A DNA stretch of 32,000 bases from Candidatus Arthromitus sp. SFB-mouse-Japan. GTDB lineage: Bacteria > Bacillota > Clostridia > Clostridiales > Clostridiaceae. The position numbers were made by a program, and so were the translations under genes. The notes below the pieces were generated by a model. It saw only the letters and a list, made by a program, of their open reading frames with translations. It searched no databases and had not been told where the DNA came from. This document shows positions 1 to 24,274 of this stretch, piece by piece. Location of the stretch: assembly GCF_000270205.1 (NCBI RefSeq), contig NC_015913.1:480001-512000 (forward strand). The letters are read 5' to 3'. The stretch's first letter is position 1. Every line of letters begins with the position of its first letter.

Positions 1-203
1 TTACTCTATTTAGTGGATCAATAATAATTGAACAAGTTTTTGGTTGGCCTGGTATAGGTAATATAACTTATCAAGCTATTTTAAATAGGGATTATCCTTT
101 GTTAATGGGATCTGCTATGTTCTATGCAATATTGACTATTTTTTCAAATTTATTGACTGATATTGTTTACGCATTTGTTGATCCAAGAATAAGGCTTAAA
201 TAG
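1..203 (+). CDS. Peptide ABC transporter permease, OppB/DppB family, C-terminal fragment (5' end lies outside the window)
   Basis: The frame is open from the window edge (codons phased from nt 3) to TAG 201-203. The translation TLFSGSIIIEQVFGWPGIGNITYQAILNRDYPLLMGSAMFYAILTIFSNLLTDIVYAFVDPRIRLK is the conserved tail of binding-protein-dependent peptide permeases. The oppC-like gene follows with its own GGAGG. Confidence 0.85.
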   Translation, partial: TLFSGSIIIEQVFGWPGIGNITYQAILNRDYPLLMGSAMFYAILTIFSNLLTDIVYAFVDPRIRLK

Positions 204-216
204 GAGGTTAAGATTT

Positions 217-1146: not shown

Positions 1147-1157
1147 GGGTGATTTTG

Positions 1158-2144
1158 ATGAGTAAAAAAATAGTAGAATTTAAAAACTTATGTGTTTCTT
1201 TTAAAGTAGAAGAGAGAATAGTTAATGCTGTAAATGATGTTAGTTTTGAAATTAGACAAGGTGAAGTACTCGGAATTGTAGGAGAATCTGGATGCGGTAA
1301 ATCAGTTACATCTATGTCTTTAATGAGATTATTAGCAGTTCCTCCAGCTAAGTATGAGTCAGGGAGTATTTATTTAAATGGAATAGATATTTTAACATTA
1401 TCAGAAGAAGAAATGAGAAAAAGGAGAGGTTCTGAGGTAGCCATGATTTTTCAGGAACCGATGACATCTTTAAATCCAGTTATGAAGATTGGATATCAAA
1501 TTTCTGAAGTAATAACTATACACCATAAAGTATCTAAAAAAGAAGCAAAAAAACGATCTATTGATATGATAAAGTTAGTTGGTATACCGAGAGCTGAGTC
1601 GATTTATGATTCGTATCCACATGAATTATCAGGAGGTATGCGTCAAAGAATAATGATTGCTATTGCCTTAGTTTGTAATCCTCAGGTTTTAATTGCCGAT
1701 GAGCCAACTACGGCATTAGATGTTACTATACAGGCACAAATATTAGATTTAATAAAAAACATGAGAGAAAAGCTTGGAACTTCTATTATGATGATAACTC
1801 ACGATTTAGGAGTTATAGCAGAAATGGCTGATTATGTTATTGTTATGTATGCAGGTAAGGTTGTAGAAAAAGCAAAGGTAAGAGAAATATTTAATAATTC
1901 GAGGCATCCATATACAATTGGTCTTATGAAGTCAAAGCCTACGTTTGAAGGTAGTACAAGTAAGTTATATTCTATACCTGGGCAGGTACCTAATCCTATG
2001 GAGCTCCCAAATTATTGTTATTTTTATGATAGATGCGATAGAAGGCAAGATACGTGTAAAAAAGGTATACCGGAACTAGTGAAGGTTAATGATGCACATT
2101 ATGCTTCCTGCTATATTTTGGGTAAGGAGGGAAATAATGAGTAG
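1158..2144 (+). CDS. oppD: Oligopeptide ABC transporter ATP-binding protein (OppD type)
   Basis: Walker A GESGCGKS, signature LSGGMRQR and Walker B LIADEPTTALD are present, along with a C-terminal oligopeptide-type extension containing Cys residues. ATG 1158 is preferred to the track's GTG 1149 because GGGGTGA at 1146-1152 is better spaced for it. The start is uncertain by 9 nt. Confidence 0.93.
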   Translation: MSKKIVEFKNLCVSFKVEERIVNAVNDVSFEIRQGEVLGIVGESGCGKSVTSMSLMRLLAVPPAKYESGSIYLNGIDILTLSEEEMRKRRGSEVAMIFQEPMTSLNPVMKIGYQISEVITIHHKVSKKEAKKRSIDMIKLVGIPRAESIYDSYPHELSGGMRQRIMIAIALVCNPQVLIADEPTTALDVTIQAQILDLIKNMREKLGTSIMMITHDLGVIAEMADYVIVMYAGKVVEKAKVREIFNNSRHPYTIGLMKSKPTFEGSTSKLYSIPGQVPNPMELPNYCYFYDRCDRRQDTCKKGIPELVKVNDAHYASCYILGKEGNNE

Positions 2145-3108
2145 TAATAGAATTCTTGAAGTAACGAATCTAAAAAAATATTTTCCTATTAAAAATGGTG
2201 TTTTACAAAGAGTTGTAGGTAATGTAAAAGCAGTTGATGATGTTTCTTTTACTATAAATAAGGGAGAAACGTATTCACTTGTTGGTGAATCAGGATGTGG
2301 AAAATCAACTTTAGGTAGAACTGTTATTAAATTATTAGATAAAACTGATGGAACAGTTCGATTTAAAGGTATTGATATTCATAGTATGTCTAGAAAGGAA
2401 ATGAAGGAACTTAGACTTAAGATGCAGATAATATTTCAAGATCCATTTAGTTCCCTAAATCCAAGAAAACCTGTTAGTGAGTTGATAGGAGAGGCATTAA
2501 TTGCTCATAAAGTTGTAAATAGCAAGAAAGAGTATTATAATAGAGTTGGAGAAGTTATGGAAATATGTGGTCTTGCGAAGTATCATATGAAAAGATATCC
2601 ACATGAATTTTCAGGAGGTCAACGTCAAAGAATATGTATAGCTAGAGGATTAATTTTGAATCCAGAATTTATAGTTGCTGACGAACCTGTATCGGCATTA
2701 GATGTTTCTATACAGTCGCAGATAATAAATCTGCTACAACAGTTTCAGGAAGAGTATAACCTGAGTTATTTGTTTATATCACATGATTTAAGTGTTGTGA
2801 GACATATAAGTCATAGGGTAGGTGTTTTGTATTTAGGCTCTTTGGTTGAGGAGGGTAAAAAAGAGGATTTATATGAAAAACCATTACACCCATATACACA
2901 GGCTTTAATATCTTGTGTTCCTTTACCTGATCCGGATAGGAAAAATAATAGGATAATATTAAAGGGTGATATACCTAGTGCATCTAATCCTCCATCTGGA
3001 TGTAAATTTCATACGAGATGTTTATATGTAAAAGATATATGTAAACATGAAATACCAATTTTAAGAGATTTAGGTAATGGTCATAAGGTTGCATGTCATT
3101 TGTATTAA
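2137..3108 (+). CDS. oppF: Oligopeptide ABC transporter ATP-binding protein (OppF type)
   Basis: Walker A GESGCGKS, signature FSGGQRQR and Walker B VADEPVSALD are present. ATG 2137 is preceded by AAGGAGGG and overlaps the oppD stop by 8 nt. The track start at 2089 adds an implausible 16-aa leader that lies inside oppD. Confidence 0.93.
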   Translation: MSSNRILEVTNLKKYFPIKNGVLQRVVGNVKAVDDVSFTINKGETYSLVGESGCGKSTLGRTVIKLLDKTDGTVRFKGIDIHSMSRKEMKELRLKMQIIFQDPFSSLNPRKPVSELIGEALIAHKVVNSKKEYYNRVGEVMEICGLAKYHMKRYPHEFSGGQRQRICIARGLILNPEFIVADEPVSALDVSIQSQIINLLQQFQEEYNLSYLFISHDLSVVRHISHRVGVLYLGSLVEEGKKEDLYEKPLHPYTQALISCVPLPDPDRKNNRIILKGDIPSASNPPSGCKFHTRCLYVKDICKHEIPILRDLGNGHKVACHLY

Positions 3109-3189
3109 ATTAGTTTAAAATATTTTTAATAAATATAAAATTTATATTTATTAAATTTAATTAATTTTTATGATTTTTAGGAGGAATAA

Positions 3190-4971
3190 ATGAAAAAGAG
3201 AAAATTAATTAGCATATTGGGATTGGTTTTGGGATTTATGTTTGTTGTATCTTCTTGTTCTTCATCAGATTCAAGTCAATTAGATAATCCTGATTTTGCA
3301 ATTCAACCATCTGATAATGTAGTTCTTACAAATGGTACTGGTAATTATGATAGAGAAACTTTGTATTTATCTGCTATGTTACCAGAAACTTTACCTGTAA
3401 ATTCAGCAAATAGAAAAGATACACTTATAATTGGAATAATAAGTCCAAATGGTGTTTTTAATCCACTTCTTGAAGAATCGCAATATGATTCAGATGTAAA
3501 TGATGCTATGTGGGCTCCATTACTTGAAATAAATTATGATGGAACAATAATAGAAGGACTTGCTTATATGCCGGAGATATCTGAGGATGGAAAAACTTAT
3601 ACATTTACTTTAAAAGATGATATCAAGTGGCAGGATGGTACACCTATAACATCACAAGATTTTGATTTTACATTTAAATATATAATGGATAAGACTTATA
3701 CAGGAAGATTTGAAAGAGAAACTTTAAATGTATTAGGTTGGGAAGCGTATAGAGATGGTACATCTACTGAAATTGAAGGATTTAAAATAATTGATGATAA
3801 AACTTTTTCAGTTACAATGGCTTCACCAAATGCTAAAACATTAGCCTATTTTTCAAAAGATCTCAAGCCTTTAGCAAAACATGTATATGGTGCTGATTAT
3901 GTTCAAGGTAATGCTAAAGATTTAGATAAGTTTAATAGGAATCCATTTGGTAACGGAGCTTATAAGTTTGTAAGTTATAAGGATGGAGAAGAAGTTACTT
4001 TAGTTGCTAATGAAAATTACTATAAGGGTGCTCCAAAGATTAAAAATTTAGTATTTAGAGTGGTAAATGAAACTAACCAAATGTTATTGTTAGAAAATGG
4101 TGATGTAGATATAATGGCTAGTACTGTAGCTGTTACTGCAGAGAATTTATTACTTTTACAACAGCTTGGATTTATTAATGCAAATATAGTTGAATTTTTG
4201 GGCTATGGTTATGTTGCTATAAATCATAATGAACCAATTATGCAAGATTTAAATGTGAGGAAAGCATTAGCTTATGGTTTAGATAGAAGTTCAGTTGTAG
4301 AAGCTGCATTTGGAGGACAGGCGAATGTAATAGATATTCCACAATCTACGGTTTCTTGGGCTTATCCTGAGGATGGAGATTATACGCATTATGAATATAA
4401 TCCAGAAAAAGCAAAACAACTTTTAGAGGAAGCGGGTTGGAAAGTTGGATCTGATGGAATAAGGGAAAAAGATGGAGTGAAATTATCGCTTAAATTTTTA
4501 GCATCTTCTCCAAATCCAGTTAATGATGTTTTGGTTCCTGTAATGATTGATAATTATAAAGCAATTGGTATAGAATTAAAGGCTGAGCAAATGGAATTTA
4601 GAACTTTAGTTGATAAGCAAAGTGAAGCTAAAGAAGGGAAATTTTCTTATCATTTAGCATTTTTGGCTTGGTCACTTGATATAGATCCAGATTCAACTTC
4701 TACATTTGCTTCAAATGGGGCAAATAATAAAGTTGGGTATTCAAATCCTACGGTTGATAAGTTGTTGAATGATGCTTTAAATGAAATGGATACAACAAAA
4801 AGAAAAGAATTGTATGCACAGTTATATAAAGAGATTTCAGAGGATTTACCTTATTTATTCTTGTATCAAAGAAAAGATATGAATGTTTATTCTTCTAAAG
4901 TTAAGGGTATGGAAGGAGGAACTCCTTACAGATCATTTAAAGATGAATTAGAGAAGATTTCATTCGAATAG
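3190..4971 (+). CDS. Peptide ABC transporter substrate-binding lipoprotein (family 5 SBP, OppA-like), paralog 1
   Basis: 593-aa ORF with AGGAGGA at 3179-3185. The signal peptide has a lipobox (VVSSC). Family-5 SBP motifs recur along the sequence (RKDTLIIG, NPFGNGAYKF, LVANENYY, LGYGYVAINH). Confidence 0.9.
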   Translation: MKKRKLISILGLVLGFMFVVSSCSSSDSSQLDNPDFAIQPSDNVVLTNGTGNYDRETLYLSAMLPETLPVNSANRKDTLIIGIISPNGVFNPLLEESQYDSDVNDAMWAPLLEINYDGTIIEGLAYMPEISEDGKTYTFTLKDDIKWQDGTPITSQDFDFTFKYIMDKTYTGRFERETLNVLGWEAYRDGTSTEIEGFKIIDDKTFSVTMASPNAKTLAYFSKDLKPLAKHVYGADYVQGNAKDLDKFNRNPFGNGAYKFVSYKDGEEVTLVANENYYKGAPKIKNLVFRVVNETNQMLLLENGDVDIMASTVAVTAENLLLLQQLGFINANIVEFLGYGYVAINHNEPIMQDLNVRKALAYGLDRSSVVEAAFGGQANVIDIPQSTVSWAYPEDGDYTHYEYNPEKAKQLLEEAGWKVGSDGIREKDGVKLSLKFLASSPNPVNDVLVPVMIDNYKAIGIELKAEQMEFRTLVDKQSEAKEGKFSYHLAFLAWSLDIDPDSTSTFASNGANNKVGYSNPTVDKLLNDALNEMDTTKRKELYAQLYKEISEDLPYLFLYQRKDMNVYSSKVKGMEGGTPYRSFKDELEKISFE

Positions 4972-4981
4972 TGTGTTGATT

Positions 4982-5034
4982 AAAATCTTGCTTATATATT
5001 AACTTTGGTTTAATATATAGGTAAGATTTTTTAT
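4982..5034 (+). terminator. Rho-independent terminator after OppA paralog 1
   Basis: A 20-bp stem pairs 4982-5001 (aaaatcttgcttatatatta) with 5011-5030 (taatatataggtaagatttt), including two G-T wobbles and a 9-nt loop. It runs into a T tract. A TTGCTT-17 nt-TAATAT promoter-like pair (4988-5016) lies inside the same hairpin. Confidence 0.7.
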
Positions 5035-12791: not shown

Positions 12792-12826
12792 TAAAGGTGT
12801 ATTGATGTGATATCAGTACACCTTTA
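12792..12826. terminator. Bidirectional terminator hairpin between the AI-2E transporter and the convergent VOC gene
   Basis: A 10-bp stem pairs taaaggtgta (12792-12801) with tacaccttta (12817-12826). There is extra inner pairing (tgat/atca). It overlaps the stop codon of the VOC gene. Confidence 0.7.
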
Positions 12827-13198
12827 TGTTTGTTTAAGTGAAAATATATTTCCATCATCATCATTGAATTCTGTAAAGATTCCATATCCTGTATCTAAGG
12901 GTTCTCTTAAAAATTTTACACCTTTTGAAGAGAGTTCGTTGTATGTTGATTGTATATCATCGGTAAAGAATGTTATTTCTTTATATGATTTTTTAGAATC
13001 AGTTCTTAAACTTTTTGGATATAGTACAAGTGATGTCGTGCCTTCCTGAGGGATTACTTCTGTCCAAGTATATTTTCCTTCTATTTGGATATCTTCTTTT
13101 ATTTTAAAGCCCATTTTTTTTGACCAAAATTCTTTAGCTTTATTTTGATCTTTAACGAAAATAAATACATTACATAGATTTTTAATCATAATTTTCAC
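12824..13198 (-). CDS. VOC (glyoxalase/bleomycin-resistance/dioxygenase) family protein
   Basis: The 124-aa ORF has a typical VOC layout: VFIFVKDQNKAKEFWSKKMGF at the N-terminus and FFTDDIQSTYNELSSKGVKF...EFNDDDGNIFSL at the C-terminus. Confidence 0.8.
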   Translation of the reverse strand: MKIMIKNLCNVFIFVKDQNKAKEFWSKKMGFKIKEDIQIEGKYTWTEVIPQEGTTSLVLYPKSLRTDSKKSYKEITFFTDDIQSTYNELSSKGVKFLREPLDTGYGIFTEFNDDDGNIFSLKQT

Positions 13199-13385
13199 CC
13201 CTATAAAAAATTAAGGTTAATAAATTTTTATGATTATATCGTAAAATACTTATATTTATTCAATAATTTTTAGTAATTAACGGTTAATTAATAAATTGAA
13301 TAAATTAGTTAAATAATTTAATTAATTAATATTAATACTAAAGAGTGTGGTAATGAAATTTTTACATAGAGTTAAGGTGATATTT

Positions 13386-16300
13386 ATGAGTGATAGTTTG
13401 AGAAAGTATCAAGATATTTCTGTTAATTTAACTTTAGATAATAGGACAATATATTTAGATAATCTTCACGATGAGGATTTTTTAGATTTATATATTTTAA
13501 AAAGTTATAACGAAGAAGTTTATTCCAATTTTATTAATTTTATATTTTCAGAGAATTGGGATATATTAAAAATTGTTGAAGACCCTTTAACTTGGCAGAG
13601 TGATAGATTATTTAAAATTAGGGAGTTAGCTAATAGGAATAAAAAAGAAAAGCTTGAGAAGTTTGAGGTGAATGATGATTTTTCAAGCATAAAAGAGTAT
13701 GAGATATTTTTAGATGATTTTTATAAGGGAAACATAAACAAAAATTTGGATTTATTAAATGCGCAGTATAGTAGCATGAATGATGTTATTTTAAATTTAG
13801 ATAAGTTGTGTAAAGAAAATAAAAGTAGGGATTTATATATAGGGTATCCGTTTGTTGAGGGATATATTGACAGCACAAGTTTTGTTCGTATGCCATTTTT
13901 TTTAATACCTGTTGAAGTTTTTAATGATAATAATGAGTGGTTTATAAGGAAGAAGATTGAAAGTAAAATAAAGATAAATAGATATTTGATTATTATACTT
14001 CAAAGGATTTTTAAACACAAGAATTTGGAAATTAAGCTTGATTATGAGTTTAAGAAAGATTTTAAAAGAGATATTTTAAAATTAGCATTAGATTTTTTGA
14101 AAAGTTTAGATATAAGTTTTAGTAATAATGAAGGAATTTTAGATAATAAGTTTGATGAATTTTCAGGTGTATTAAGAAGTTTAAGTAGTGATAATCCATA
14201 TTTAGAGATTAAAAATTATTTGGTTCTTGGTGATTTTCAGGTAATAGGAGAAGAGTATGAAGATTATGAATCACTCATTTATGTGGATATATCTAATACT
14301 CTTGTAGGGAGATTAATTTCTGGAAGTGATAACAAAGAGAAATACAAGGAAGATATAAACAAAGAAATTTATGTGAGAGATAAACTTGATTTTAGTCAGA
14401 AACAATCTATTTGTCTAAGTGATGAGAGTTATATTACACTTGTAAATTCAAATTTGGATGTGGGCAAGGATACTACTATAACTAATTTTGTATTTGATAA
14501 GATTTGTAAAAATAAGAGTTTGCTTATAATTTCTAGGGATAAGGAATATTTGGAAAAATTGTATAATGAATTCTCTTTTACAAAATCAATTATTATGGAC
14601 TTATTCCAAAATGATTTTTATCAAAAATTTTATAGAAGTTTTGATAGGATACTTAATTTTCGAGAAGATTTTGAAATAAAAAGGGTATTTAATGAAATTT
14701 TAAAAGAGATTAATGAAAAGTATAATTTTATAGAAGATTCTAATGGCATTTACAATAAAATAGAGAGCTTTGGTTTGTCGCTTAAGGATATGTATGAATT
14801 AACTATGGATGTAAGTGACAGTAGTATTGATAAAATGTCATTTAATAAATTTAAATTGAATAATCCTGTTTCTGGTTGTACATTCAATGAGATTGTGCAC
14901 GCAATTGATGAAATTAAAGATAAAAATTTGATAGATATTTTTATATCTCATAAGGAATATTTAAATAAACATAAAATTTTAAATTTAATCAGAGAAGATT
15001 TTAATTTCGAAGATATAAATTTATATTTAGATAAATTAAAGGCTCTTAGACAAAAATATGATAAGTTAGCTTTAAATTTTGAAAAAAATAAATGTAGTCT
15101 TAGTGTGATTAGGTTATTCAAAGAGAATAAATTTTCTAAAGATGAGATTATAGATAAGTGTTTTAAATATAGTGAATACTACATTGAATCTGAAAATGAT
15201 AATAATTATGATTCTTCAGAATCTTGGTTTAAAAGTTTAGGTTTTGGGAAAATCAAAAGAAAAAGTATTGAACTTAACAGGCAAGCTTTATTAAATACTG
15301 AGATGTATTATGAAGCTATAAAAGAAATTGATCATGATATTAGTTTTATTGGAGATATAGTAAAGCATGATAAATTTGAATTTATTAGGAATAGAATATT
15401 TGATTTTAATGATGTAACGCATTATACAGGTAATCTTTTGAATATGATGGATACTTTTCATGAATTTATAGAGTATAGTTATAAAATTAAAAATTTCAGT
15501 ATGCTTGTTAATGATATATTAGAATATATATATGATAATTCTATCAATGAGAAAATGATGCGAGATAATTTAGATAAAATTTTGAAATTTTCTATATTTG
15601 TAAATATTTTAAGACGTCATAATAAACATGGGGATACACTTGAGAATTATAAAATGGTTGATAGATATTTTGATAATCTTATGAAATTATTTGATAAGAG
15701 AGCGTGTAATTTAGAAAGATTTGTATTAAATAAGGTTCTGTCTGAAGCAAAGGAAAGTTTAATTAATAATGATAATAAAATAGATAAAAATTCTTTTTCA
15801 AATATTTCTAGATATTTAATTAAAGATTTTATAAGCACTTTTAATAAGGAATGTTTAAAATTATTTCCATGTTTTTTAATCGATTATGATAGTTTGTCTT
15901 CAAATATACCTTTAATCGAAGGATTATTTGATTATATAGTTTTTGTAGATGGACATAATTATTTTTTAGAAGATATTTTACCTGTAGTGTATAGAGGTAA
16001 AAGATTGGTTGTATTCGGAAGTGATAATCAAATTAATTGCAGTAGTAAGAGTTATAATATAATATCTTATGATGTTACAGAGATTTCAAATAATGTGTTT
16101 AAATTTGTGAGTGATAAATTTAATAGGGTAAATTTAAAATATATGTATCCGTCTGGAAATGAAATTTTTAGGGATATATTAAATAGTTTATTTAGTATTG
16201 AAGACATTATTTCATTACCTAGAGACAGGAAATATTCAGATATTGACAATCCATTTATGATATTTACTATAGGGAATAAAGGTATAGAGAATATAAATGA

Positions 16301-17303
16301 ATATGAGGCTAAATTTGTTGTAGATCTTTTATTTAAACATTTGAAAATTAAGAAATATGAGGATTCTATTGGAATAATTACAATTAGTAAAAGTCACGCA
16401 GATTTAATAAAAAAAGTAATTAGTGATAGATTGAAGGTAGATGAGGAATTTAATTTCTTGTATAACAGGGAATGTAAAAAGTATAAATCAAATGCTGGAA
16501 TATACATAAGTAGCATTCCTGAAATTTTATATAAGAAGATAGATATTGTGATATTTTCTCTAGGTGGTGAGAGAAATATAGAAAATGAGGTAGAAATTAA
16601 GTTTAGTGATATAGAAGGTCGGAATTGTAGAAATAAACTAAATATGTTTTTAATGATGACTCAATATGAAATGGATATAGTTACGTCACTCAGTATAAGT
16701 GATATTGAGAGTAAAGAATATTCAAATGAAAACGCAAATATTTTAAAAAAATATTTGCATTATGCCAATGAAATTTATAATGGTAATGTGGATAAAATTA
16801 TGAATGAGTTAAATTGTGATGAAAGTGATAATAGTAAAGTTAATAAAATATTAGATATTATTTGTGATAAGTTACTTGATAGGGGACTTATTGTAGAGAA
16901 AAATTTCGGAACTTCATTTTATAAATTTGATTTTGCGATATATGATAAAGACCTTAAAAAATATGTTTTATTTGTAGAACTTGAATCCAGTATAGTTGAT
17001 AAATTCAAGTGTAGGTTGGAGCAATATATAGATTGTTTTATTTATTTTGATAAACTTGGATATAATGTTTTGAAAATTTGGAGTAAAGATTTGTGGAGTG
17101 ATATAGATTTTCAGGTTGAGAATATAATTTATAATTATTTTTTAGTTAGGGATAAATTGTTGAAGTATAATTCTAATAGAAAGTGCGTTGATAGTTTGAT
17201 TAATAGAAATGGAGTATTAAGCAAGTTTGTTAAGATTATTGAAAATAGAAGAATAGGAATGCTTTTCTCTGAGAAGGCTGATAAAGATTTTATAAAAAGA
17301 TAG
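13386..17303 (+). CDS. Large DUF4011-like / Upf1-like SF1 helicase-fold / C-terminal restriction-endonuclease-like (DUF559/MTES_1575-type) protein with degenerate ATPase motifs
   Basis: The N-terminal block DLYIGYPFVEG...FVRMPFFLIPVEV resembles the DUF4011 core. The helicase scaffold is recognisable: SNLDVGKD at 14448-14471, FDYIVFVDGHNY around 15930-15962, and LVVFGSDNQ at 16005-16031. The C-terminus YKFDFAIYDKDLKKYVLFVELESS...LGYNVLKIWSKDLW resembles the REase-like tail. ATG 13386 follows AAGGTGA; the track's GTG 13347 is less likely. Confidence 0.65.
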   Translation: MSDSLRKYQDISVNLTLDNRTIYLDNLHDEDFLDLYILKSYNEEVYSNFINFIFSENWDILKIVEDPLTWQSDRLFKIRELANRNKKEKLEKFEVNDDFSSIKEYEIFLDDFYKGNINKNLDLLNAQYSSMNDVILNLDKLCKENKSRDLYIGYPFVEGYIDSTSFVRMPFFLIPVEVFNDNNEWFIRKKIESKIKINRYLIIILQRIFKHKNLEIKLDYEFKKDFKRDILKLALDFLKSLDISFSNNEGILDNKFDEFSGVLRSLSSDNPYLEIKNYLVLGDFQVIGEEYEDYESLIYVDISNTLVGRLISGSDNKEKYKEDINKEIYVRDKLDFSQKQSICLSDESYITLVNSNLDVGKDTTITNFVFDKICKNKSLLIISRDKEYLEKLYNEFSFTKSIIMDLFQNDFYQKFYRSFDRILNFREDFEIKRVFNEILKEINEKYNFIEDSNGIYNKIESFGLSLKDMYELTMDVSDSSIDKMSFNKFKLNNPVSGCTFNEIVHAIDEIKDKNLIDIFISHKEYLNKHKILNLIREDFNFEDINLYLDKLKALRQKYDKLALNFEKNKCSLSVIRLFKENKFSKDEIIDKCFKYSEYYIESENDNNYDSSESWFKSLGFGKIKRKSIELNRQALLNTEMYYEAIKEIDHDISFIGDIVKHDKFEFIRNRIFDFNDVTHYTGNLLNMMDTFHEFIEYSYKIKNFSMLVNDILEYIYDNSINEKMMRDNLDKILKFSIFVNILRRHNKHGDTLENYKMVDRYFDNLMKLFDKRACNLERFVLNKVLSEAKESLINNDNKIDKNSFSNISRYLIKDFISTFNKECLKLFPCFLIDYDSLSSNIPLIEGLFDYIVFVDGHNYFLEDILPVVYRGKRLVVFGSDNQINCSSKSYNIISYDVTEISNNVFKFVSDKFNRVNLKYMYPSGNEIFRDILNSLFSIEDIISLPRDRKYSDIDNPFMIFTIGNKGIENINEYEAKFVVDLLFKHLKIKKYEDSIGIITISKSHADLIKKVISDRLKVDEEFNFLYNRECKKYKSNAGIYISSIPEILYKKIDIVIFSLGGERNIENEVEIKFSDIEGRNCRNKLNMFLMMTQYEMDIVTSLSISDIESKEYSNENANILKKYLHYANEIYNGNVDKIMNELNCDESDNSKVNKILDIICDKLLDRGLIVEKNFGTSFYKFDFAIYDKDLKKYVLFVELESSIVDKFKCRLEQYIDCFIYFDKLGYNVLKIWSKDLWSDIDFQVENIIYNYFLVRDKLLKYNSNRKCVDSLINRNGVLSKFVKIIENRRIGMLFSEKADKDFIKR

Positions 17304-17325
17304 TAGGTTACTACTATCTTTTTTT
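17294..17325 (+). terminator. Rho-independent terminator after the helicase-like gene
   Basis: A 10-bp stem pairs aagatagtag (17297-17306) with ctactatctt (17311-17320), extended by A/T pairs. A T7 run follows. It overlaps the stop codon. Confidence 0.8.
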
Positions 17326-17348
17326 GATTACAAAATTATTTCAAAATG

Positions 17349-17377
17349 TTGAACAAAATATTGAAATATGTTAATAT
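17349..17377 (+). promoter_or_regulatory. Putative sigma-A-type promoter for the essC-like gene
   Basis: TTGAAC (17349-17354), a 17-nt spacer, then TAATAT (17372-17377), about 40 nt upstream of ATG 17418 (SD AGAGGGGA). It is embedded in an array of CAAAAT(A/G)TTGA repeats. Confidence 0.45.
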
Positions 17378-17417
17378 GTTGTTTACAAAATATTGATAAA
17401 ATTTGTAAGAGGGGATT

Positions 17418-20400
17418 ATGAAAAGGGTAAAAATTTATGTTTTCTATAAGAACAAGCTTATAGAATGGAATATTGAAAGCTTTCAAAATAGTTCAGTTGA
17501 ATTTTTATTAGATAAAGATATAACCTTATTTTCAAGAGACTATACATTTCATTTTGAATATGAAAATGGGAATTATATATTGAAATCTTTTAATGATTTT
17601 GAGCTTATTTATAAAGATCAAAAATTAAACTCAAAATTGATTATAGATGGAGATATAATTATATGTGATTTAATTAGGGATAAATCTAAGGTTATTTTAT
17701 CAATACAGTACGAAGATTTTTCAAATTGTAATTTTTATAAGTGTAAAGTGAATGAAATTTCACAGATAAAGATTGGAAAAAATGAATATGCTGATATTAT
17801 TTATGATAATGATGATATGCTTGACTATCATATTATTTTAAATTTTAGGAAAAATAGTGTGGAAGTTATAAGTAATGGTATTGGTTGTTATCTAAATAAT
17901 AGGAAGATTTCAAAAGGTGAAGCTTTATTTGGAGATACAATTTTTATTTATGGACTTAAGATTATTTATTTAGGAAAGTATATTGCAGTAAATAATCCAA
18001 ATGGAAAAGTATCTTCAAGGTTAAAATTTTCCAATGATGATATTGAAGTAATGGAAACTAGGAGTTTTACTAATATTAATAGGGAAATTGAAGATGATGG
18101 TAAAGTATATTTGGATTTAGATGAAAATGTAGAGTTTAGGGTTGATGCACCTGTTATTTATAATCATAATTCCTTGAAATTTTTGTTTATTGGATTAATC
18201 CCATTAAGCTTAATAGTTTTAGCAGTTTCTATGTTATTTTTGTATTATATAGGGGCAAATTCTTTTTATTATCTTTTAGTTAGTTCGATTGGAACTTTAG
18301 TTATTGTATTACTTATATGTTTATTATTTTATTTTAAAGTAAATAGGAGAAGACAAGAAGAAAAGTACAATTCTTATTTGGATGATAAGTTTAAGGAAAT
18401 ATCAGTAATTAAAGATGAATGGGTAAGGGCTTTATCTCAAAGATATCCAAGGACTATTGATTGTTATGAAAGTGTTATTAATTTTGATAATAATGTTTGG
18501 AATAGAGTTGGAAGAGATAATAATTTTTTGAATTTGACAATAGGACAAGGTGAATCTTATTTTGGGAATTTAAAAATATTAACTAAAAATGTTCATGATA
18601 ATAGACTTTTTGATTCCCATAAAATACTTAAGAAGGTGCCAATAACTATACCTCTTAAAAAGATAAGTAAGCTTGCAGTTGTGTCAGACATGCATAAAAT
18701 TTATGATGTATTTAAAAATTTTATAGTACAATTTACGAGCAATAATTCTTATAAGGACTTGAAAATTGTTACGATTGCATCAAAAGATCATGAAGAAAAC
18801 ATAAATTATTTAAAACTAATTCCTCATGTGTATTCTGATAAAAATGATTTTAGATATTTTGCTATAACTGATGATGAAGTAATTGATGTTTTACATAATT
18901 TACGCAAAATAATTAAAGAAAGGGAGAGCATTTTAAGACAGAATACTAATTATGTTTTTAAGACATCTTACGTTGTTTTTTTATTTCATAATTTTACTAC
19001 CCCAATGAATCAATTTTTAAATTATATAAAGAGTGTTAGTAGTAAGATAGATGTTCATTTTGTGATTTTTACTATAAATAATAAGGATATACCTGAGTGC
19101 TTTAAATATATACTAAATGTTGGTGAAAGAGAGCAGATTCTTTATAACATTCGAGAAAATGGAATTAAAAAAGTTGTTTTATCTTATGACTATGTTGACA
19201 TAGCTAATTTGATTGATATAGATAAATTTACGGATACATTATCTAAGATCAAATTAAGCACAGAAGGAGTGATTAAAGGATTTGAAAGTAGATCAATTTT
19301 TGGTTTATATAATGCTTCTTCTGTTAAAGATCTAAATATAGAAGATAGATGGAGAAAGAATAAGTTATTAAGTTCTTTAAATATTCCTGTGGCTACTAAG
19401 AATTTTAAAGATGTATTTACTCTTAATATACATGAGAAGCATGATGGAATAAATGGAATAATATTCGGTGAAAGTGGAGTTGGAAAGACCGAATTATTGA
19501 AAAATATGATTCTTTCTTACTCAATAAACTTAAGTCCAAATCTTTTAAATTTCATAATACTTAAATCTAATTATAATATAAAGTTAAATAATTTTGTACA
19601 TCTTCCACATGTGATTGATATTTTGGATAAGGAAGATATTTCAGAGAAGAATAGATTAATAGAACTTATAAAAAATGAAATTAGTAGGAGACAAAAATTA
19701 TTTGATAGTATAGGTGTTAAAGATATAAACGCATATTTGAATACTTATGAAAATTATTCCGATACTATAATAATTCCACATTTGATTATTATTATAGATG
19801 ATGTTTGTAAAAATGATATCGACTTTATACGTGAGTTATCACAGTTATATTCATCGATATTGAGTATTGGAATTCATATTATTGTATCTTCTAATTGTGT
19901 TAGTGCATTTGTTAAAGAAGAGAAAATTTTGAGTAATTTTGATTTCAAAGTATGTTTTAGGTTATCTGATGTGAGAGATTTGTTTGAAATTATGGGAGAA
20001 AATGAAATTTTAAATCCCAATTCCACAGGTAAATTTAATATAAGATTGTCGGATAGTGTTATAGTTAATAATGTGCAAATTGTATATTCGAATTGTTATG
20101 TTGGGGATTATGAGGAGCAATTAGCTATAGAACTTGTAAATAATTGTGGTACTATTAGCAAAAAGATCATAAGAGCTTATGAGACGAATGAATTTTTGCT
20201 TCAGGAAGATGAAATAATTAATGAAATTTCAAGTCTTTCAACAAATATAAATATGAGATATATGTCAGCATTTAATAGTTCACTTAGATATTTAAGTCTT
20301 TATGATTTATCTGGATATAAGAGTAATTTTAATGGGTTTATGTGGACTGAATCTGAGAAACCTTGTTCGGCAATCGTAGGAGTTGTTGATGATCCTAAGT

Positions 20401-21701
20401 ATCAGGTTCAAAGATTTTTAAGTGTGGATTTTAAGAATATTGGTAATTTATTTGTATTTGGATCACCGGGAACAGGAAAGAGTAATCTTATTAAGACACT
20501 TATTTATTCTTTATGTTGTGAATATAAGGAAAGGAATTTAAATGTGTATATAGTTGATCCTAATACTAGGAATACAGATTGTTTTGGTTATGCTCCACAT
20601 GTTAAGAATATAGCTTATACTAAAAGTGAAATTAACTCGTTATTTAAAAAAATATTGGAAGAGTTTGAACTTAGAAAAAAAATATTTGATAATTTAGATA
20701 TTTCAACTATAGATCAATATAAACTTAGAGTTGGGGAAGAATTACCAAATGTAATTTTAACAATTGATAGTGTACAAGAAATTATAGATGATAAGTGGGA
20801 TTATATGAAATTTATCAGAATGATAGCAAGAGACGGTAAATTTTATGGAATCTATGTTTGCATAACTTCATCTGAATATGGAAATATAGAAATGAACTTA
20901 AGTGAGTATTTTGATAATAAATTCGTATTGAGGTTTAATGATGAATCTTTATACAAAAAAATATTAGGAAGGGAATATAAATTGAATTCCAAATTTAAAG
21001 GAAGAGGTATAGTTAATTATAGAGATTCTTTAGGTGATAGGATTCTTGAGTTCCAAGTTGCTCTTCCTATGTTAAGTAATAATGATGTTGATCTTAATAA
21101 TAAATTAAAGCGTTTATTTATTCACATGAATGAAATAAATAATAAGATTTATGGTGGATCAGAAATTATGGATGTATTAGAACATGAGAGTAATGAAGAG
21201 AAGCAATTAATTGAAAGTAGAACGGAATTAGATTTAAATAGTTTTTTAGATAATTTTATTAATGATTGTAATAATTTGTGTGTTGTACATGATTCTAAAA
21301 ACAATGATGGAATTTTATATAATATCTATAAGATTGTAGAAGAAAAGGGAATTAAGTCTTATTTTTTTCAAAATAGAGATTTAGATGAGAATGAGGTAAA
21401 AGAATTTATAAATTGGCTAGATTCTGTTACTGATGAGAGAGTTTGTGTAATTATAAGTAATATAGAGAAATTGATATCTTTGTGCAATGATGAGATGATA
21501 GGATCATTAAATTCTATTTTAGAGAGGCAATCAAGAAAAATGTATTTTGTTACGTCGATATATAGGACTAGTAATATAGATAATAGATGTTCAAAGGTAA
21601 TAGATTTATTACTTTTAAATGGGGCAAGCATAATTGTAAATGATGATGAGAATGCAACTATTTTATATAAATCTCAAGAGAATCTCATCAAGATAAATTA
21701 G
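17418..21701 (+). CDS. essC: Type VII secretion (T7SSb) EssC/YukB-like FtsK/SpoIIIE-family ATPase
   Basis: The 1427-aa ORF has two FHA-like N-terminal modules (for example IGKNEYADIIYDND...ISNGIGCYLNNRKISKGEALFGDTIFIYGLKIIY). Two hydrophobic helices follow (about aa 255-305). Then come a P-loop-less module, D1 with GESGVGKT (19467-19490), D2 with GSPGTGKS (20460-20483), and a short P-loop-less C-terminal module. Confidence 0.85.
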   Translation: MKRVKIYVFYKNKLIEWNIESFQNSSVEFLLDKDITLFSRDYTFHFEYENGNYILKSFNDFELIYKDQKLNSKLIIDGDIIICDLIRDKSKVILSIQYEDFSNCNFYKCKVNEISQIKIGKNEYADIIYDNDDMLDYHIILNFRKNSVEVISNGIGCYLNNRKISKGEALFGDTIFIYGLKIIYLGKYIAVNNPNGKVSSRLKFSNDDIEVMETRSFTNINREIEDDGKVYLDLDENVEFRVDAPVIYNHNSLKFLFIGLIPLSLIVLAVSMLFLYYIGANSFYYLLVSSIGTLVIVLLICLLFYFKVNRRRQEEKYNSYLDDKFKEISVIKDEWVRALSQRYPRTIDCYESVINFDNNVWNRVGRDNNFLNLTIGQGESYFGNLKILTKNVHDNRLFDSHKILKKVPITIPLKKISKLAVVSDMHKIYDVFKNFIVQFTSNNSYKDLKIVTIASKDHEENINYLKLIPHVYSDKNDFRYFAITDDEVIDVLHNLRKIIKERESILRQNTNYVFKTSYVVFLFHNFTTPMNQFLNYIKSVSSKIDVHFVIFTINNKDIPECFKYILNVGEREQILYNIRENGIKKVVLSYDYVDIANLIDIDKFTDTLSKIKLSTEGVIKGFESRSIFGLYNASSVKDLNIEDRWRKNKLLSSLNIPVATKNFKDVFTLNIHEKHDGINGIIFGESGVGKTELLKNMILSYSINLSPNLLNFIILKSNYNIKLNNFVHLPHVIDILDKEDISEKNRLIELIKNEISRRQKLFDSIGVKDINAYLNTYENYSDTIIIPHLIIIIDDVCKNDIDFIRELSQLYSSILSIGIHIIVSSNCVSAFVKEEKILSNFDFKVCFRLSDVRDLFEIMGENEILNPNSTGKFNIRLSDSVIVNNVQIVYSNCYVGDYEEQLAIELVNNCGTISKKIIRAYETNEFLLQEDEIINEISSLSTNINMRYMSAFNSSLRYLSLYDLSGYKSNFNGFMWTESEKPCSAIVGVVDDPKYQVQRFLSVDFKNIGNLFVFGSPGTGKSNLIKTLIYSLCCEYKERNLNVYIVDPNTRNTDCFGYAPHVKNIAYTKSEINSLFKKILEEFELRKKIFDNLDISTIDQYKLRVGEELPNVILTIDSVQEIIDDKWDYMKFIRMIARDGKFYGIYVCITSSEYGNIEMNLSEYFDNKFVLRFNDESLYKKILGREYKLNSKFKGRGIVNYRDSLGDRILEFQVALPMLSNNDVDLNNKLKRLFIHMNEINNKIYGGSEIMDVLEHESNEEKQLIESRTELDLNSFLDNFINDCNNLCVVHDSKNNDGILYNIYKIVEEKGIKSYFFQNRDLDENEVKEFINWLDSVTDERVCVIISNIEKLISLCNDEMIGSLNSILERQSRKMYFVTSIYRTSNIDNRCSKVIDLLLLNGASIIVNDDENATILYKSQENLIKIN

Positions 21702-21721
21702 GAATTTTGGAGGACCTATAT

Positions 21722-21967
21722 ATGATTTATATACAAGTATATGTGCCAGATAAAAATAGATTTTTTGATTATAAGGTATCTAGGAAAATAAATATTTGTA
21801 ATTTAAAAAGCTTAATTGTTGAATCAATATATAATGTGAAATGTAATGATGAATTTATAAAATGTAATTATGCATTAATGGATTTTAATTGTAGAAAAAG
21901 ATTGAAAGATGATGTAAATTTGTATAATTATCCTGTTTATAATGGATATAAATTTTTGTTAATATAG
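21722..21967 (+). CDS. esaB: YukD/EsaB-like ubiquitin-fold protein
   Basis: The 81-aa ORF from ATG 21722 has GGAGG at 21709-21713 with 8-nt spacing. It matches B. subtilis YukD by eye over its full length: MIYIQVYVP...FDYKVSRKINICNLKSLI at the N-terminus and RLKDDVNLYNYPVYNGYKFLLI at the C-terminus (the L-x-D-x-gI-x-nGd-x-L-x-iL pattern). It starts 20 nt after essC. Confidence 0.65.
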   Translation: MIYIQVYVPDKNRFFDYKVSRKINICNLKSLIVESIYNVKCNDEFIKCNYALMDFNCRKRLKDDVNLYNYPVYNGYKFLLI

Positions 21968-21977
21968 AACTTACAAT

Positions 21978-22001
21978 GGCATGCTTATATATAAGCATGC
22001 C
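21978..22001 (+). terminator. Hairpin (terminator or attenuator) after the yukD-like gene
   Basis: The perfect palindrome ggcatgctta-tata-taagcatgcc has a 10-bp GC-containing stem. It is followed by CTTTAATTTT, so the T tract is weak. Confidence 0.55.
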
Positions 22002-22059
22002 CTTTAATTTTAAAACATATATAATAAATGAATATTTTTATTTTATTTTTGGAGGTAAG

Positions 22060-23574
22060 ATGATTAATAAAATAAAAACTCTTATTATGATAGGTTTTAT
22101 TGCAGGATTAATAACTAATTTTAGTGTAATCACTAATGCTAAAAATAATATGGGAACAGAAATTTTAAATGGTTATGGTACCGGCGAATTAATTTATTTA
22201 ATTAATGAAAATGGAGAATTGGTTATATTAAATAGTGATATGGAAGATATAGTTCCAGAGGATATGCCTAAACTTTTATCTATTGATATTTATGATGATG
22301 GTTTTGTTGCATTAACGAGGGAACATGAACTTATTTCTTCAAAAAATTTTACAACATCAAAAAATATAAGTAAAATTGATGGTAGATTTTTATTAACATT
22401 AGATGGTAAAGTATCTTCATTTGATATGGAAAATTCTAGAATATTTAAAGATTTTAAAAATGTTAGGGATATAAAAGCTTTAACTGATAATGCACTTATG
22501 ATATATGAAGGTGAGGATAATGTAAGTATTGTTAATATTGGGAATTCTAAAGTAATGAGTATAAAAAATTTATTTGAAGTGAAAGAGGTAAATATTTTTA
22601 GTGATGATTTGATATTAATTATTAAAGAAGATGGGAGCATGATAGGATTCGGTGATGAATATAATAAAGTCTCAAAAATTGTAGAATCAATTAAGAATGC
22701 AAAAAAATTTATACATCAGGCAGATAATTTATATGTTGTAACTTATGATAATAAGGCAATACCAATAATTGAAAATGGTTTTAAAGCACCTGAAGAATAT
22801 TTATTGGATGTATATGACATTACTGTTAACGAATTTTCAAATAGCGAAGGTGAATTTTATAAGTCTTATTTTGTAACTACGGAAGGTAAAGTTTTTTATT
22901 ATATACAAAGTGATAATGAAATAAGTGATTTTAATAGGCAAAAAATTGAATATATGAATAGTTTTGATAATGTAGAGAAGGTATATGAATCAGGATATTT
23001 AACTATAGTACTTCATAGGGATGGATCTATAACTATACCTTTTAATATTCATCATGAATTAAATGGTATTACTGGAGTAATTAGTGTTGAGCTTAAAAAT
23101 CAAAGTTATGTCGTTTATTTAGATGATGGACAAGCTATAACTTCACTAGATAATATTATTTTAAATGATAGAAGTTCATTTGTTAAACGAGATGAAATTT
23201 CAGATTTATATGATTATTTCAATGTAATTTCTTTAAATACTGTGAATAGAGAACTTAATAAGGAAGATTTTGAAAAGATGAGAGAATCTATTTTAAATGA
23301 TAAGGAATCATTTAAAAATGTTATAAGGAGTTTATGTTTAGATAGGAAATTTATATTGATAGATAATAAATATGATGAAATAATGGATAAATTATATTAT
23401 TCTATTTTAAATGTGAAGCCAAGTTCTGATGAATATAATCATATGTTATATGCAATAATTGAAAAATCAGAGGAGAATAATATGACTAAGGAACAAATTT
23501 TAATTCAGATTGTGAATTATATATTTGAAAATCCACTATTTGAGGACATATTTAAGAAATTTACTCAAATATAG
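22060..23574 (+). CDS. Secreted repeat protein (degenerate RCC1-like / beta-propeller-like blades) with a C-terminal helical DUF4214-like region
   Basis: ATG 22060 follows GGAGG (22051-22055). The Sec-type signal peptide is MINKIKTLIMIGFIAGLITNFSVITNA. About 8-9 units of roughly 40 aa share a hydrophobic-strand-(D/E)-(D/N)-G-x-hydrophobic pattern (INENGELVIL, TLDGKVSSF, IKEDGSMIGFG, TTEGKVFYY, LHRDGSITIPF, YLDDGQAITS). The track start at 21976 lies inside the upstream hairpin and was rejected. Confidence 0.5.
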   Translation: MINKIKTLIMIGFIAGLITNFSVITNAKNNMGTEILNGYGTGELIYLINENGELVILNSDMEDIVPEDMPKLLSIDIYDDGFVALTREHELISSKNFTTSKNISKIDGRFLLTLDGKVSSFDMENSRIFKDFKNVRDIKALTDNALMIYEGEDNVSIVNIGNSKVMSIKNLFEVKEVNIFSDDLILIIKEDGSMIGFGDEYNKVSKIVESIKNAKKFIHQADNLYVVTYDNKAIPIIENGFKAPEEYLLDVYDITVNEFSNSEGEFYKSYFVTTEGKVFYYIQSDNEISDFNRQKIEYMNSFDNVEKVYESGYLTIVLHRDGSITIPFNIHHELNGITGVISVELKNQSYVVYLDDGQAITSLDNIILNDRSSFVKRDEISDLYDYFNVISLNTVNRELNKEDFEKMRESILNDKESFKNVIRSLCLDRKFILIDNKYDEIMDKLYYSILNVKPSSDEYNHMLYAIIEKSEENNMTKEQILIQIVNYIFENPLFEDIFKKFTQI

Positions 23575-23583
23575 TTGTTGTAG

Positions 23584-23612
23584 TTGAATATATTTCTATC
23601 CTTATGTATATT
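23584..23612 (+). promoter_or_regulatory. Putative sigma-A-type promoter for the cytidylate-kinase-like gene
   Basis: TTGAAT (23584-23589), a 17-nt spacer, then TATATT (23607-23612), with TG immediately upstream of the -10 hexamer. Confidence 0.45.
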
Positions 23613-23659
23613 AACTAGTATGTAAGAATTTTATAGTAATTCGTGGAGGAATGTTAAGC

Positions 23660-24274
23660 ATGAATAAAATAATTACTATAGGTCGTGAATTTGGGAGTGG
23701 CGGTAGAGAATTTGGGAAGCGACTTGCTGAATATTTGGGTATTGCATATTATGATAAAGAAATAATAATTGAGATATCCAAAAAAACGAAACTTGCAGAA
23801 GAATATATTCAGCAGGTTATTGAGGATAAACCTATTTCATCATTTCCTATTACTATAGGGAACAGTTTTTATGCAATTTTTAACCCTATGACAGAAAATT
23901 TAGAAGCAAATATTTATGCAGAGCAAAATAATATTTTAGTTGATATGGCTAAAAAATCTAGTTGTGTTATTATAGGAAGATGTGCAGATTATATACTTAA
24001 GGAATATAATCCATTTAAAATATTTATTTATTCTGATATGAAAACAAAGATTAATAGATGTATTGAAAAAGCACCTGAACATGAAAATTTAAGTGAAAAG
24101 CAGTTAAGGCATCAAATTTTAAATATAGATAAAAATAGAGCTAAGTATTATCAATTTATAACTGGAAGTAAATGGGGAGATAAATTGAATTATGATTTAT
24201 GTGTAAATACTAGTTCTGTACTTATAAAAGATGCAGCAGAGTATATTGGTAAGATGATTGAAAATAGAATCTAA
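23660..24274 (+). CDS. Cytidylate kinase-like family protein (P-loop NMP-kinase fold)
   Basis: The N-terminus MNKIITIGREFGSGGREFGKRLAEYLGIAYYDKEII is the hallmark of the cytidylate-kinase-like family. ATG 23660 is better spaced from GGAGGA (23645-23650) than the track's ATG 23651. Confidence 0.75.
   Translation: MNKIITIGREFGSGGREFGKRLAEYLGIAYYDKEIIIEISKKTKLAEEYIQQVIEDKPISSFPITIGNSFYAIFNPMTENLEANIYAEQNNILVDMAKKSSCVIIGRCADYILKEYNPFKIFIYSDMKTKINRCIEKAPEHENLSEKQLRHQILNIDKNRAKYYQFITGSKWGDKLNYDLCVNTSSVLIKDAAEYIGKMIENRI

Follow-up and report, generated by a model that had tools for sequence, protein, structure and literature searches.

The described proteins closest to the subject of this work are the DUF4011-MTES_1575 proteins of the ProA, Hhe and PDC-S37 type. 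We analyzed a window of 32,000 nucleotides from Candidatus Arthromitus sp. SFB-mouse-Japan (NCBI RefSeq assembly GCF_000270205.1, contig NC_015913.1, positions 480,001 to 512,000 of the forward strand), one of the segmented filamentous bacteria (SFB), and in it the gene at 13386–17303 (window coordinates), whose product aligns end to end with these proteins, has the same domain order and length, and shares with them the LYIGYPFVEGY signature and the nuclease Asp/Glu residues. Unlike these relatives, the SFB protein has all of its ATPase/helicase motifs substituted, and its gene belongs to the vertically inherited core and keeps a fixed slot, whereas the relatives lie in variable contexts. We read it, with a probability of about 0.72, as an SFB-clade pseudo-helicase that was inactivated anciently, has remained under purifying selection and would now fill a motor-less role.

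The eukaryotic proteins Upf1, IGHMBP2, Sen1/SETX, Aquarius, DNA2 and ZNFX1 have the same helicase-core fold (Foldseek E 1e-10 to 1e-8, identity 9–17%) but differ in being active ATPases with intact motifs and neither DUF4011 nor a Vsr-type nuclease; the nuclease of DNA2 is a different one and is N-terminal. Superfamily 1 (SF1) helicase folds without motor motifs are familiar from RecC and AddB, which serve as DNA-recognition scaffolds in RecBCD and AddAB; the RecB-type nuclease domain is active in AddB and inactive in RecC, and AddB keeps a Walker A remnant only. Their likeness to the SFB protein would be a functional analogy only, namely a dead SF1 fold that is retained and joined to a nuclease: RecC and AddB are of the SF1A (UvrD-like) type and work in obligate complexes with an active motor, whereas the SFB protein is of the SF1B (Upf1-like) type and no such partner was identified for it. 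A pseudo-helicase retained for a non-motor role, as the SFB protein would be, is also described in Utp25 (PMC9539457), a eukaryotic DEAD-box-like (superfamily 2, SF2) ribosome-assembly factor of an unrelated lineage. Our literature search found no paper on the SFB protein or on a dead DUF4011 helicase, and nothing usable on ProA, Hhe, PDC-S37 or type VII secretion in SFB; in the literature found, DUF4011 turns up only at a defence hotspot of Pseudomonas, as a core gene that bounds it.

Homology, fold and helicase motifs

The protein-database search returned clusters 100%, 88% and 75% identical to the window protein, the last being the “helicase” of Candidatus Arthromitus sp. SFB-rat-Yit (family Clostridiaceae), and then eight clusters at 40–46% over the full length. 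Beyond SFB there is a drop to 25–26% identity over 83–96% of the query, in proteins with the Pfam set DUF4011, AAA_11, AAA_12 and MTES_1575, the best relative with intact motifs being matched by phmmer at E 7.5e-83 over 96% of the query. In an exhaustive phmmer search of 1.84 billion representatives, SFB-type proteins scored 800–915 bits and the next best match 324 bits at 26% identity. Pfam gave only sub-threshold matches for the window protein, to MTES_1575 (E 1.3e-6) and AAA_12 (E 6e-4); NCBIfam gave “anti-phage protein ProA” (NF058533) at 77.5 bits, below the family cut-off of 1,500, and no match to Hhe (NF042953), and PADLOC gave its candidate family PDC-S37 at E 3e-24. The intact Clostridium-type relatives themselves reach 459–669 bits, far below the ProA/Hhe cut-offs of 1,500–2,000, and are therefore a subfamily related to ProA/Hhe and not a member.

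The 1,305 residues are ordered as a DUF4011-like N-domain, a degenerate SF1B RecA1, a helical insertion, a degenerate RecA2, a Vsr-type nuclease domain and a variable tail. Two features are needed at this point:

13386–17303, plus strand: pseudo-helicase gene, 1,305 amino acids (open reading frame, homologues, alignments, substitution rates, AlphaFold2, Foldseek)
13833–13865, plus strand: DUF4011 signature LYIGYPFVEGY, residues 150–160 (alignments)

PF13195 (DUF4011) gave no Pfam match at E ≤ 1, although the N-terminal 330 residues do align with PF13195-positive relatives; the DUF4011 assignment is one by alignment, not by Pfam match. Within the signature, Y154, P155, F156 and G159 are invariant in 19 of 19 sequences of alignment A1 (which includes eight intact relatives); the motif is the same in close intact relatives and is recognizable, with substitutions, in remoter ones.

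A PDB sequence search with the single window protein gave no match at E ≤ 1, and matches appeared only with the family profile, to IGHMBP2 (1e-15), Sen1, Upf1, ZNFX1 and DNA2. The AlphaFold2 model, built for residues 125–1262 from a 44-sequence alignment, has a mean predicted local distance difference test score (pLDDT) of 81.7 and a predicted template-modeling score (pTM) of 0.73, and its Foldseek matches in the PDB are Aquarius, SETX/Sen1, Upf1, DNA2, IGHMBP2, ZNFX1 and coronavirus nsp13 at E 1e-10 to 1e-5. The SF1B (Upf1-like) fold with its two RecA-like domains is thus kept in the model. The first-pass annotation of this DNA, which was made from the sequence alone, had named a lack of SF1 homology among the results that would overturn its idea of a pseudo-helicase; phmmer, the family profile and the Foldseek comparison of the model all find strong homology instead. 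The window protein is homologous over its full length to DUF4011/Upf1-like SF1B helicases that carry a Vsr-type (MTES_1575) nuclease, and is a true descendant of such a fusion. A neighbor-joining tree shows SFB as one monophyletic clade with a long stem; the midpoint-rooted version of that tree places it outside all other sequences, a placement that we take as a long-branch artefact.

The loss of the helicase motifs was followed in alignment A2, which joins 33 intact relatives and 11 SFB proteins (44 sequences). The 33 intact relatives carry GPPGTGKSQ, DEASQ, GDxxQ, HYRS, VQGDERD and RLNVAxTRA with single substitutions at most, and all 11 SFB-lineage proteins deviate from them. In the same alignment columns the window protein is substituted at motifs I, Ia, II, III, IV, V and VI:

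14385–14411, plus strand: Q-motif LDFSQKQSI; the Gln is retained in 9 of 11 SFB lineages
14448–14477, plus strand: degenerate motif I (Walker A) SNLDVGKDTT, residues 355–364; intact form GPPGTGKSQT
14520–14558, plus strand: degenerate motif Ia LLIISRDKEYLEK, residues 379–391; intact form VLMVSQKKAALDV
15936–15962, plus strand: degenerate motif II (Walker B) IVFVDGHNY, residues 851–859; intact form IIFDEASQM
16014–16040, plus strand: degenerate motif III FGSDNQINC, residues 877–885; intact form AGDxKQLxP (AGDDKQLKP)
16140–16169, plus strand: degenerate motif IV YMYPSGNEIF, residues 919–928; intact form YHYRSKYDEL (MYPS against HYRS)
16509–16559, plus strand: degenerate motif V SSIPEILYKKIDIVIFS, residues 1042–1058; intact form KNIENVQGDERDIIIFS
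16632–16667, plus strand: degenerate motif VI NKLNMFLMMTQY, residues 1083–1094; intact form NRLNVAISRAKK

GPPGTGKSQT is present in 31 of the 33 intact relatives, and the other two have one substitution each. In the window protein (SNLDVGKD at 14448–14471 against GPPGTGKS) the second Gly and Lys361 remain and the first Gly and the Ser/Thr after the Lys are gone, in the same columns in which the first-pass annotation had put this loss; Lys361 is invariant in 44 of 44 sequences. The core of motif Ia reads ISRDKEYLEK where the intact relatives have VSQKKAALDV. In motif II, FVDGHN aligns to FDEASQ with the Asp replaced by Val and the catalytic Glu by Asp, and so the earlier reading of VDGH at 15945–15956 as lacking the catalytic Glu agrees with the alignment. 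GSDNQINC had likewise been recognized as motif III, with an end coordinate (16031) that falls a few codons short of 16040. Motifs V and VI had been called eroded, with the Gln, the Gly and the Arg finger lost, and can now be placed at the coordinates given above: the core of motif V is ILYKKID against VQGDERD, and that of motif VI is KLNMFLMMTQY against RLNVAISRAKK, without the Arg finger. A regular-expression scan of the whole window protein did not find GxxxxGK[ST], Walker B/DExx or [ST]RA elsewhere, and together with the alignments it leaves no intact Walker A or B motif displaced to another part of the protein. The broader claim that a DUF4011-type Upf1-like scaffold is recognizable in order with its catalytic positions substituted is thus borne out by the alignments with intact relatives. 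The claim that every motif is eroded holds for the window protein; across the clade, motifs IV–VI are eroded completely and motifs I–III to varying degrees, with the Walker A Lys invariant and two deep lineages that keep the motif II Asp-Glu pair. The residue sets lost here are a known requirement for ATP hydrolysis and coupling in SF1 and SF2 helicases. The annotation “helicase” (NCBI/UniRef, on the SFB-rat-Yit orthologue), which is the only source annotation that we met, is probably wrong enzymatically.

The pattern of loss across SFB is partly uniform and partly specific to the lineage. Motifs Ia, IV, V and VI are lost in 11 of 11 SFB proteins, among them the Gln-Gly of motif V, whose Gly is replaced by an invariant Tyr1049, and the Arg finger of motif VI. 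The first Gly of Walker A is absent everywhere and its Ser/Thr is lost in 10 of 11 lineages, the motif reading variously SNLDVGKD, SPIGTGKN, SPIDTGKS, SHIHSDKN and MGAYPDKN, and the Walker B pair is DE, DD, DN, ED or VD depending on the lineage. Among 87 columns that are at least 90% conserved in the 33 intact relatives, the residue is kept in the SFB group at 21. At these columns, once nearly invariant, conservation has fallen almost to the level of SFB as a whole (0.71 against 0.62 overall), which is consistent with a single inactivation followed by drift. This is how one ancient inactivation should look if the positions that were no longer needed drifted afterwards.

Three other residues are conserved within SFB. 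C498 (14877–14879) and C829 (15870–15872) are invariant Cys residues in all SFB lineages, and H857 (15954–15956) is a nearly invariant His that takes the place of the DEASQ Ser beside the former ATP site; should the three lie close in space, they might conceivably make up a metal site.

Retention and selection across SFB

The plus-strand open reading frame can be read from 13347 (GTG) or 13386 (ATG) to 17303, and the antisense and overlapping frames are short (60–63 amino acids) and unremarkable. The translation start is marked by the following feature:

13365–13388, plus strand: ribosome-binding site AAGGTGAT and ATG start, common to all eight SFB lineages aligned

The ATG at 13386 is the conserved start in 8 of 8 aligned lineages and, with the conserved ribosome-binding site, it gives a protein of 1,305 residues; AATATCAATAcT, a −10-like box, lies about 50 nucleotides upstream. 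The DNA is 22–24% G+C. From the base composition of the gene the stop-codon probability is 0.109 per codon, which makes 1,305 open codons a chance event of probability about 1e-65; the first-pass annotation had remarked that long random frames are rare in AT-rich DNA. As a side observation, the G+C fraction of the 13000–24000 block (the pseudo-helicase, EssC-like and 500-residue genes) is 0.22–0.27, lower than the 0.28–0.33 of the transporter and housekeeping genes at 1–5000.

Ten orthologous SFB loci were compared, from SFB-rat-Yit (AP012210), several metagenome contigs, GCA_964271565, “Candidatus Dwaynia gallinarum,” an uncultured Ca. Arthromitus metagenome-assembled genome (MAG) and a Clostridiales MAG. 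All ten have the gene in the same chromosomal slot as one uninterrupted frame with none of the six motifs, and the 11 SFB-lineage protein clusters, which are 40–100% identical, include none with an intact motif set. The shared gene order is FGGY kinase, aldo-keto reductase, AI-2E transporter, glyoxalase (minus strand), pseudo-helicase, EssC-like ATPase, 81-residue frame, protein of about 500 residues, cytidylate-kinase-like gene and NAGPA (minus strand). The glyoxalase-family gene just upstream of the pseudo-helicase (12824–13198, minus strand) is missing in rat SFB (locus L001, 9866–10000) and present in all other lineages examined.

Selection was measured as the ratio of nonsynonymous to synonymous substitution rates (dN/dS), by the Nei-Gojobori method on codon alignments with 1,000 bootstraps. 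Between the window gene and its 88% identical orthologue dN/dS is 0.133 at a synonymous divergence (dS) of 0.42 (95% confidence interval 0.105–0.164, bootstrap maximum 0.195), and against the rat lineage it is 0.186 at a dS of 0.73 (95% confidence interval 0.154–0.229). Synonymous sites are saturated between deep SFB lineages. By domain, dN/dS is 0.04–0.30, the degenerate RecA1 and RecA2 included, with 0.10–0.14 in the nuclease domain and a relaxed 0.27–0.95 in the last 55 residues. The housekeeping neighbors (ThyA, FGGY, NAGPA, CMK-like and AI-2E) have values of 0.06–0.08 for the closest pair; the EssC-like gene has 0.12–0.15 and the 500-residue gene 0.18–0.24. The first-pass annotation had taken the uninterrupted frame of about 3.9 kb as a sign of retained function rather than simple decay and had suggested a dN/dS comparison to look for purifying selection; values of 0.13–0.19 with bootstrap maxima no greater than 0.25, and ten open loci out of ten, without the frameshifts or stops in orthologues that it had thought would speak for decay, uphold that view.

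Outside SFB, about 75 loci were collected from Clostridium species, other Clostridia, Bacilli, Bacteroidota, and methanogen-related and other archaea. Of the approximately 70 full-length relatives among them, almost every one has all six motifs or all but one, and they sit in unrelated, variable contexts. No EssC-like gene was found within 6 kb of these non-SFB relatives, and the synteny comparison with intact Clostridium relatives gave no flanking gene in common within 6 kb. The context of the pseudo-helicase is a fixed core slot, not a defence island.

Four of the non-SFB proteins (P0104, P0155, P0099 and P0115) show an independent partial erosion of the helicase motifs: P0104 has HTPPCTDCAK at Walker A and DGASQ at motif II, and in P0155, where GDEKTGKIN and FTNGDE are found, a deletion has removed motifs V and VI. 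Such loss may therefore recur in DUF4011 helicase-nucleases. Among the sequences compared, the SFB clade is the only case we met in which loss appears complete and is combined with long-term retention in many lineages.

Accessory domains and the neighboring type VII-like block

Four further parts of the protein stand out in the alignments:

14769–14897, plus strand: helical-insertion patches FGLSLxxMYxxT (residues 462–473) and NNPVSGCTF (residues 492–500)
15555–15617, plus strand: SFB-specific patch MMxxNLxxILKFSxxxNIxR, residues 724–743
16860–17129, plus strand: Vsr-type (MTES_1575) nuclease-like domain, residues 1159–1248 (sub-threshold Pfam match, alignment, dN/dS, AlphaFold2)
17136–17300, plus strand: C-terminal tail, residues 1251–1305, poorly conserved (dN/dS 0.27–0.95)

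Highly conserved FGLSLxxMYxxT is matched by a similar stretch in the intact relatives closest to SFB (P0012 reads FGLTLQEMY), and NNPVSGCTF is specific to SFB. There are 69 positions that are invariant in SFB and unconserved in the intact relatives, most of them within the helical insertion (residues 446–790). Read from these positions, constraint has shifted away from the ATP site and toward an accessory domain, the insertion between the RecA1 halves.

The definition of MTES_1575 in PMC3710099 is that of a novel restriction-endonuclease fold of the Vsr type. The PF18741 match of the window protein (28.8 bits, E 1.3e-6, gathering score 38.2) covers positions 5–93 of the 96-position model, and PF18741 is precomputed for all SFB orthologues. 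D1182 is invariant, and E1198-L-E1200 aligns to E-C-D, every SFB lineage having Asp or Glu in these columns; also kept are E1212 and the IWS..W block. The first-pass annotation, which had placed the retained acidic residues of a restriction-endonuclease-like tail at 16929–16991, was right to within one codon (D1182, E1198-x-E1200). The RERD and Arg-rich motif is partly lost in the window lineage, with RLEQY in place of RERD. In the AlphaFold2 model the domain has the topology alpha-beta-beta-beta-alpha-beta at a pLDDT of 81–94, which would fit a restriction-endonuclease-like core.

Downstream, the gene ends in a feature that bears on how it is transcribed:

17296–17325, plus strand: intrinsic-terminator hairpin GATAGTAG-GTTA-CTACTATC followed by a T-run, overlapping the pseudo-helicase stop (−13.5 kcal/mol, z = −5.6)

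A hairpin with a U-run stands at the stop codon in each of the eight aligned lineages, and its stem sequence is different in each (compensatory changes); the equivalent lies at 13914–13945 in L001, and others are found in L004, L005, L006, L012 and L013. A generic scan had reported no terminator before the EssC-like gene, a false negative, as it required at least three G-C pairs and the stem has fewer. Upstream of the EssC-like gene lies a nearly invariant promoter-like block, TTGAAC-17 nucleotides-TGnTAATAT (17349–17377), followed by an invariant ribosome-binding site. Around it, direct CAAAATRTTGA repeats occur at 17342, 17354 and 17386 (block 17342–17396), with four copies in the window against 0.17 expected, and they are candidate operator sites for a regulator. 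The Rfam scan of the window gave nothing at gathering score. From this arrangement the pseudo-helicase looks monocistronic, and the EssC-like gene looks to have its own regulated promoter.

The stretch 17418–23574 can be described, from its sequence, as a divergent type VII-like block that is conserved in all SFB lineages and consists of an EssC-like ATPase, an 81-residue frame and a protein of about 500 residues. For the EssC-like gene (17418–21701) the TIGR03928 match has an E of 2.5e-136, and its 456 bits fall short of the cut-off of 778; the gene product has an N-terminal FHA match of 21.2 bits (gathering score 20.7) and FtsK_SpoIIIE matches in two stretches, and its length ranges from 1,271 to 1,429 amino acids across lineages. 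The 81-residue frame (21722–21967) has homologues only in SFB and is YukD/EsaB-like by eye, with no Pfam match, an AlphaFold2 pLDDT of 59 and nothing significant in Foldseek. A strong hairpin terminator at 21978–22001 probably ends the EssC-like/81-residue unit. It contains the region of the mechanically called start at 21976, and the 500-residue protein most likely starts at 22060 (MINKIKTLIMIGF..., signal-peptide-like), which gives 504 residues, as in three of five further lineages, whereas the protein has 495 residues in one of the other two and 502 in the last; this protein has no Pfam or NCBIfam match. All three proteins of the block are fast-evolving, with 36–56% identity between deep lineages. 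Clostridial type VII secretion variants combine an FHA-FtsK ATPase with a YukD-like and a WXG100 protein, and no helicase-like component of them is described (PMC11217815). No WXG100 gene was seen in the window.

Weighing the explanations

The course of events that we propose begins with a DUF4011/Upf1-like SF1B helicase fused to a Vsr-type nuclease, with the single-protein anti-phage systems ProA and Hhe as its nearest NCBIfam families. Its ATP-driven motor would have been inactivated before the sampled SFB lineages diverged from their common ancestor, after which Walker B and motif III would have drifted separately in each lineage. What is left may be a module for passive recognition or scaffolding that works independently of ATP hydrolysis, its output being delivered either by the nuclease-like domain or by a partner protein. 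Several observations weigh against this reading or limit it. P0006 and P0010, both deep lineages, still have the Asp-Glu pair of motif II, the Lys of Walker A never varies and most lineages retain the Gln of the Q-motif, so that nucleotide binding, or weak hydrolysis in some lineages, is possible. We do not claim the invariance of Lys361 as proof of nucleotide binding, as background invariance in SFB is already 11–27% per domain outside the tail. Motifs Ia and IV, which contact nucleic acid, are lost as well, which leaves a DNA-scaffold role of the RecC/AddB kind without direct sequence support. That the nuclease is still active would be a guess, kept acidic residues being no proof of activity; we know of no experimental definition of the catalytic residues in the MTES_1575 family. 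Finally, the dN/dS of the gene is about double that of its housekeeping neighbors (0.13 against 0.06–0.08), and the constraint on it is moderate.

The invariant Lys and the mostly retained Gln also speak for the idea that the protein is still an ATP-dependent helicase or translocase with a non-canonical catalytic constellation, as do the acidic residue at or beside the Walker B position in every lineage (VD, DD, DE, DN, ED) and the purifying selection on the RecA-like regions. We consider this unlikely, because the Arg finger, the Gln-Gly of motif V and the Arg of motif IV are absent from all 11 lineages, Walker A lacks its first Gly throughout and its Ser/Thr in ten, and the close intact relatives all retain every motif with single substitutions at most; moreover, the substituted Walker A positions vary among SFB lineages, whereas a newly evolved active site should be conserved. 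That the gene is instead a slowly decaying pseudogene, its open frame a leftover without function, seems very improbable to us, even though all catalytic motifs are gone, the gene outpaces its housekeeping neighbors, the tail is nearly neutral and sporadic, apparently independent erosion occurs in the four non-SFB proteins mentioned above. The 3.9-kb frame has stayed open in ten loci despite 0.109 stops per codon and saturated synonymous sites between deep lineages, the largest of 1,000 bootstrap values of a dN/dS of 0.13 is 0.195, and the ribosome-binding site and terminator are conserved. SFB genomes are also reduced (the SFB-rat-Yit chromosome is 1.52 Mb), and reduced genomes tend to delete non-functional DNA. 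A protein that is kept at full length, with its own ribosome-binding site and terminator and under purifying selection, is not a pseudogene in our view.

A more specific proposal ties the pseudo-helicase to the adjacent type VII-like block, for which it would be a substrate, a chaperone or an accessory component. The two genes are direct neighbors on the same strand in every SFB locus recovered, with the pseudo-helicase upstream, they evolve at comparable rates (the EssC-like gene has a dN/dS of 0.12 and the pseudo-helicase 0.13; the three large genes are 40–50% identical between deep lineages against 60–72% for housekeeping genes), and the pairing is specific to SFB, as no EssC-like gene lies within 6 kb in about 75 intact relatives. 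However, the whole region is collinear in all SFB lineages, and with the conserved terminator and the nearly invariant EssC-like promoter marking two transcription units, adjacency is no evidence of a functional link; we therefore dismissed synteny as an argument for one. Since, in addition, none of the type VII variants catalogued in PMC11217815 has a helicase-like component and inspection of the pseudo-helicase by eye showed neither a signal peptide nor WXG or LXG features, such a role seems doubtful. An equally speculative extension of the pseudo-helicase reading is that an anti-phage-type helicase-nuclease was domesticated in the SFB ancestor as a motor-less core protein with a new ligand-binding surface (NNPVSGCTF, MMxxNLxxILKFS), which would work with the SFB-specific and equally fast-evolving EssC-like, 81-residue and 500-residue proteins and might help these Th17-inducing symbionts to attach to the host or to pass through their developmental cycle; we hold this to be a long shot.

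The finding is solid and not spectacular; what makes it interesting is the organism and the series of natural inactivation states. A deep bacterial clade that keeps a 1,300-residue helicase-nuclease very long after the loss of its motor is a clean natural case, and the lineages that have the motif II Asp-Glu pair, standing beside fully eroded ones, form a natural series with which fold-dependent and ATP-dependent functions of DUF4011/Hhe-type proteins, whose mechanism is itself poorly understood, could be separated. SFB are gut symbionts with a major influence on immunity, their genomes are small and they have next to no genetics; a conserved, fast-evolving, clade-specific protein beside a divergent type VII-like locus makes a reasonable candidate for biology that is specific to a lineage or a host.

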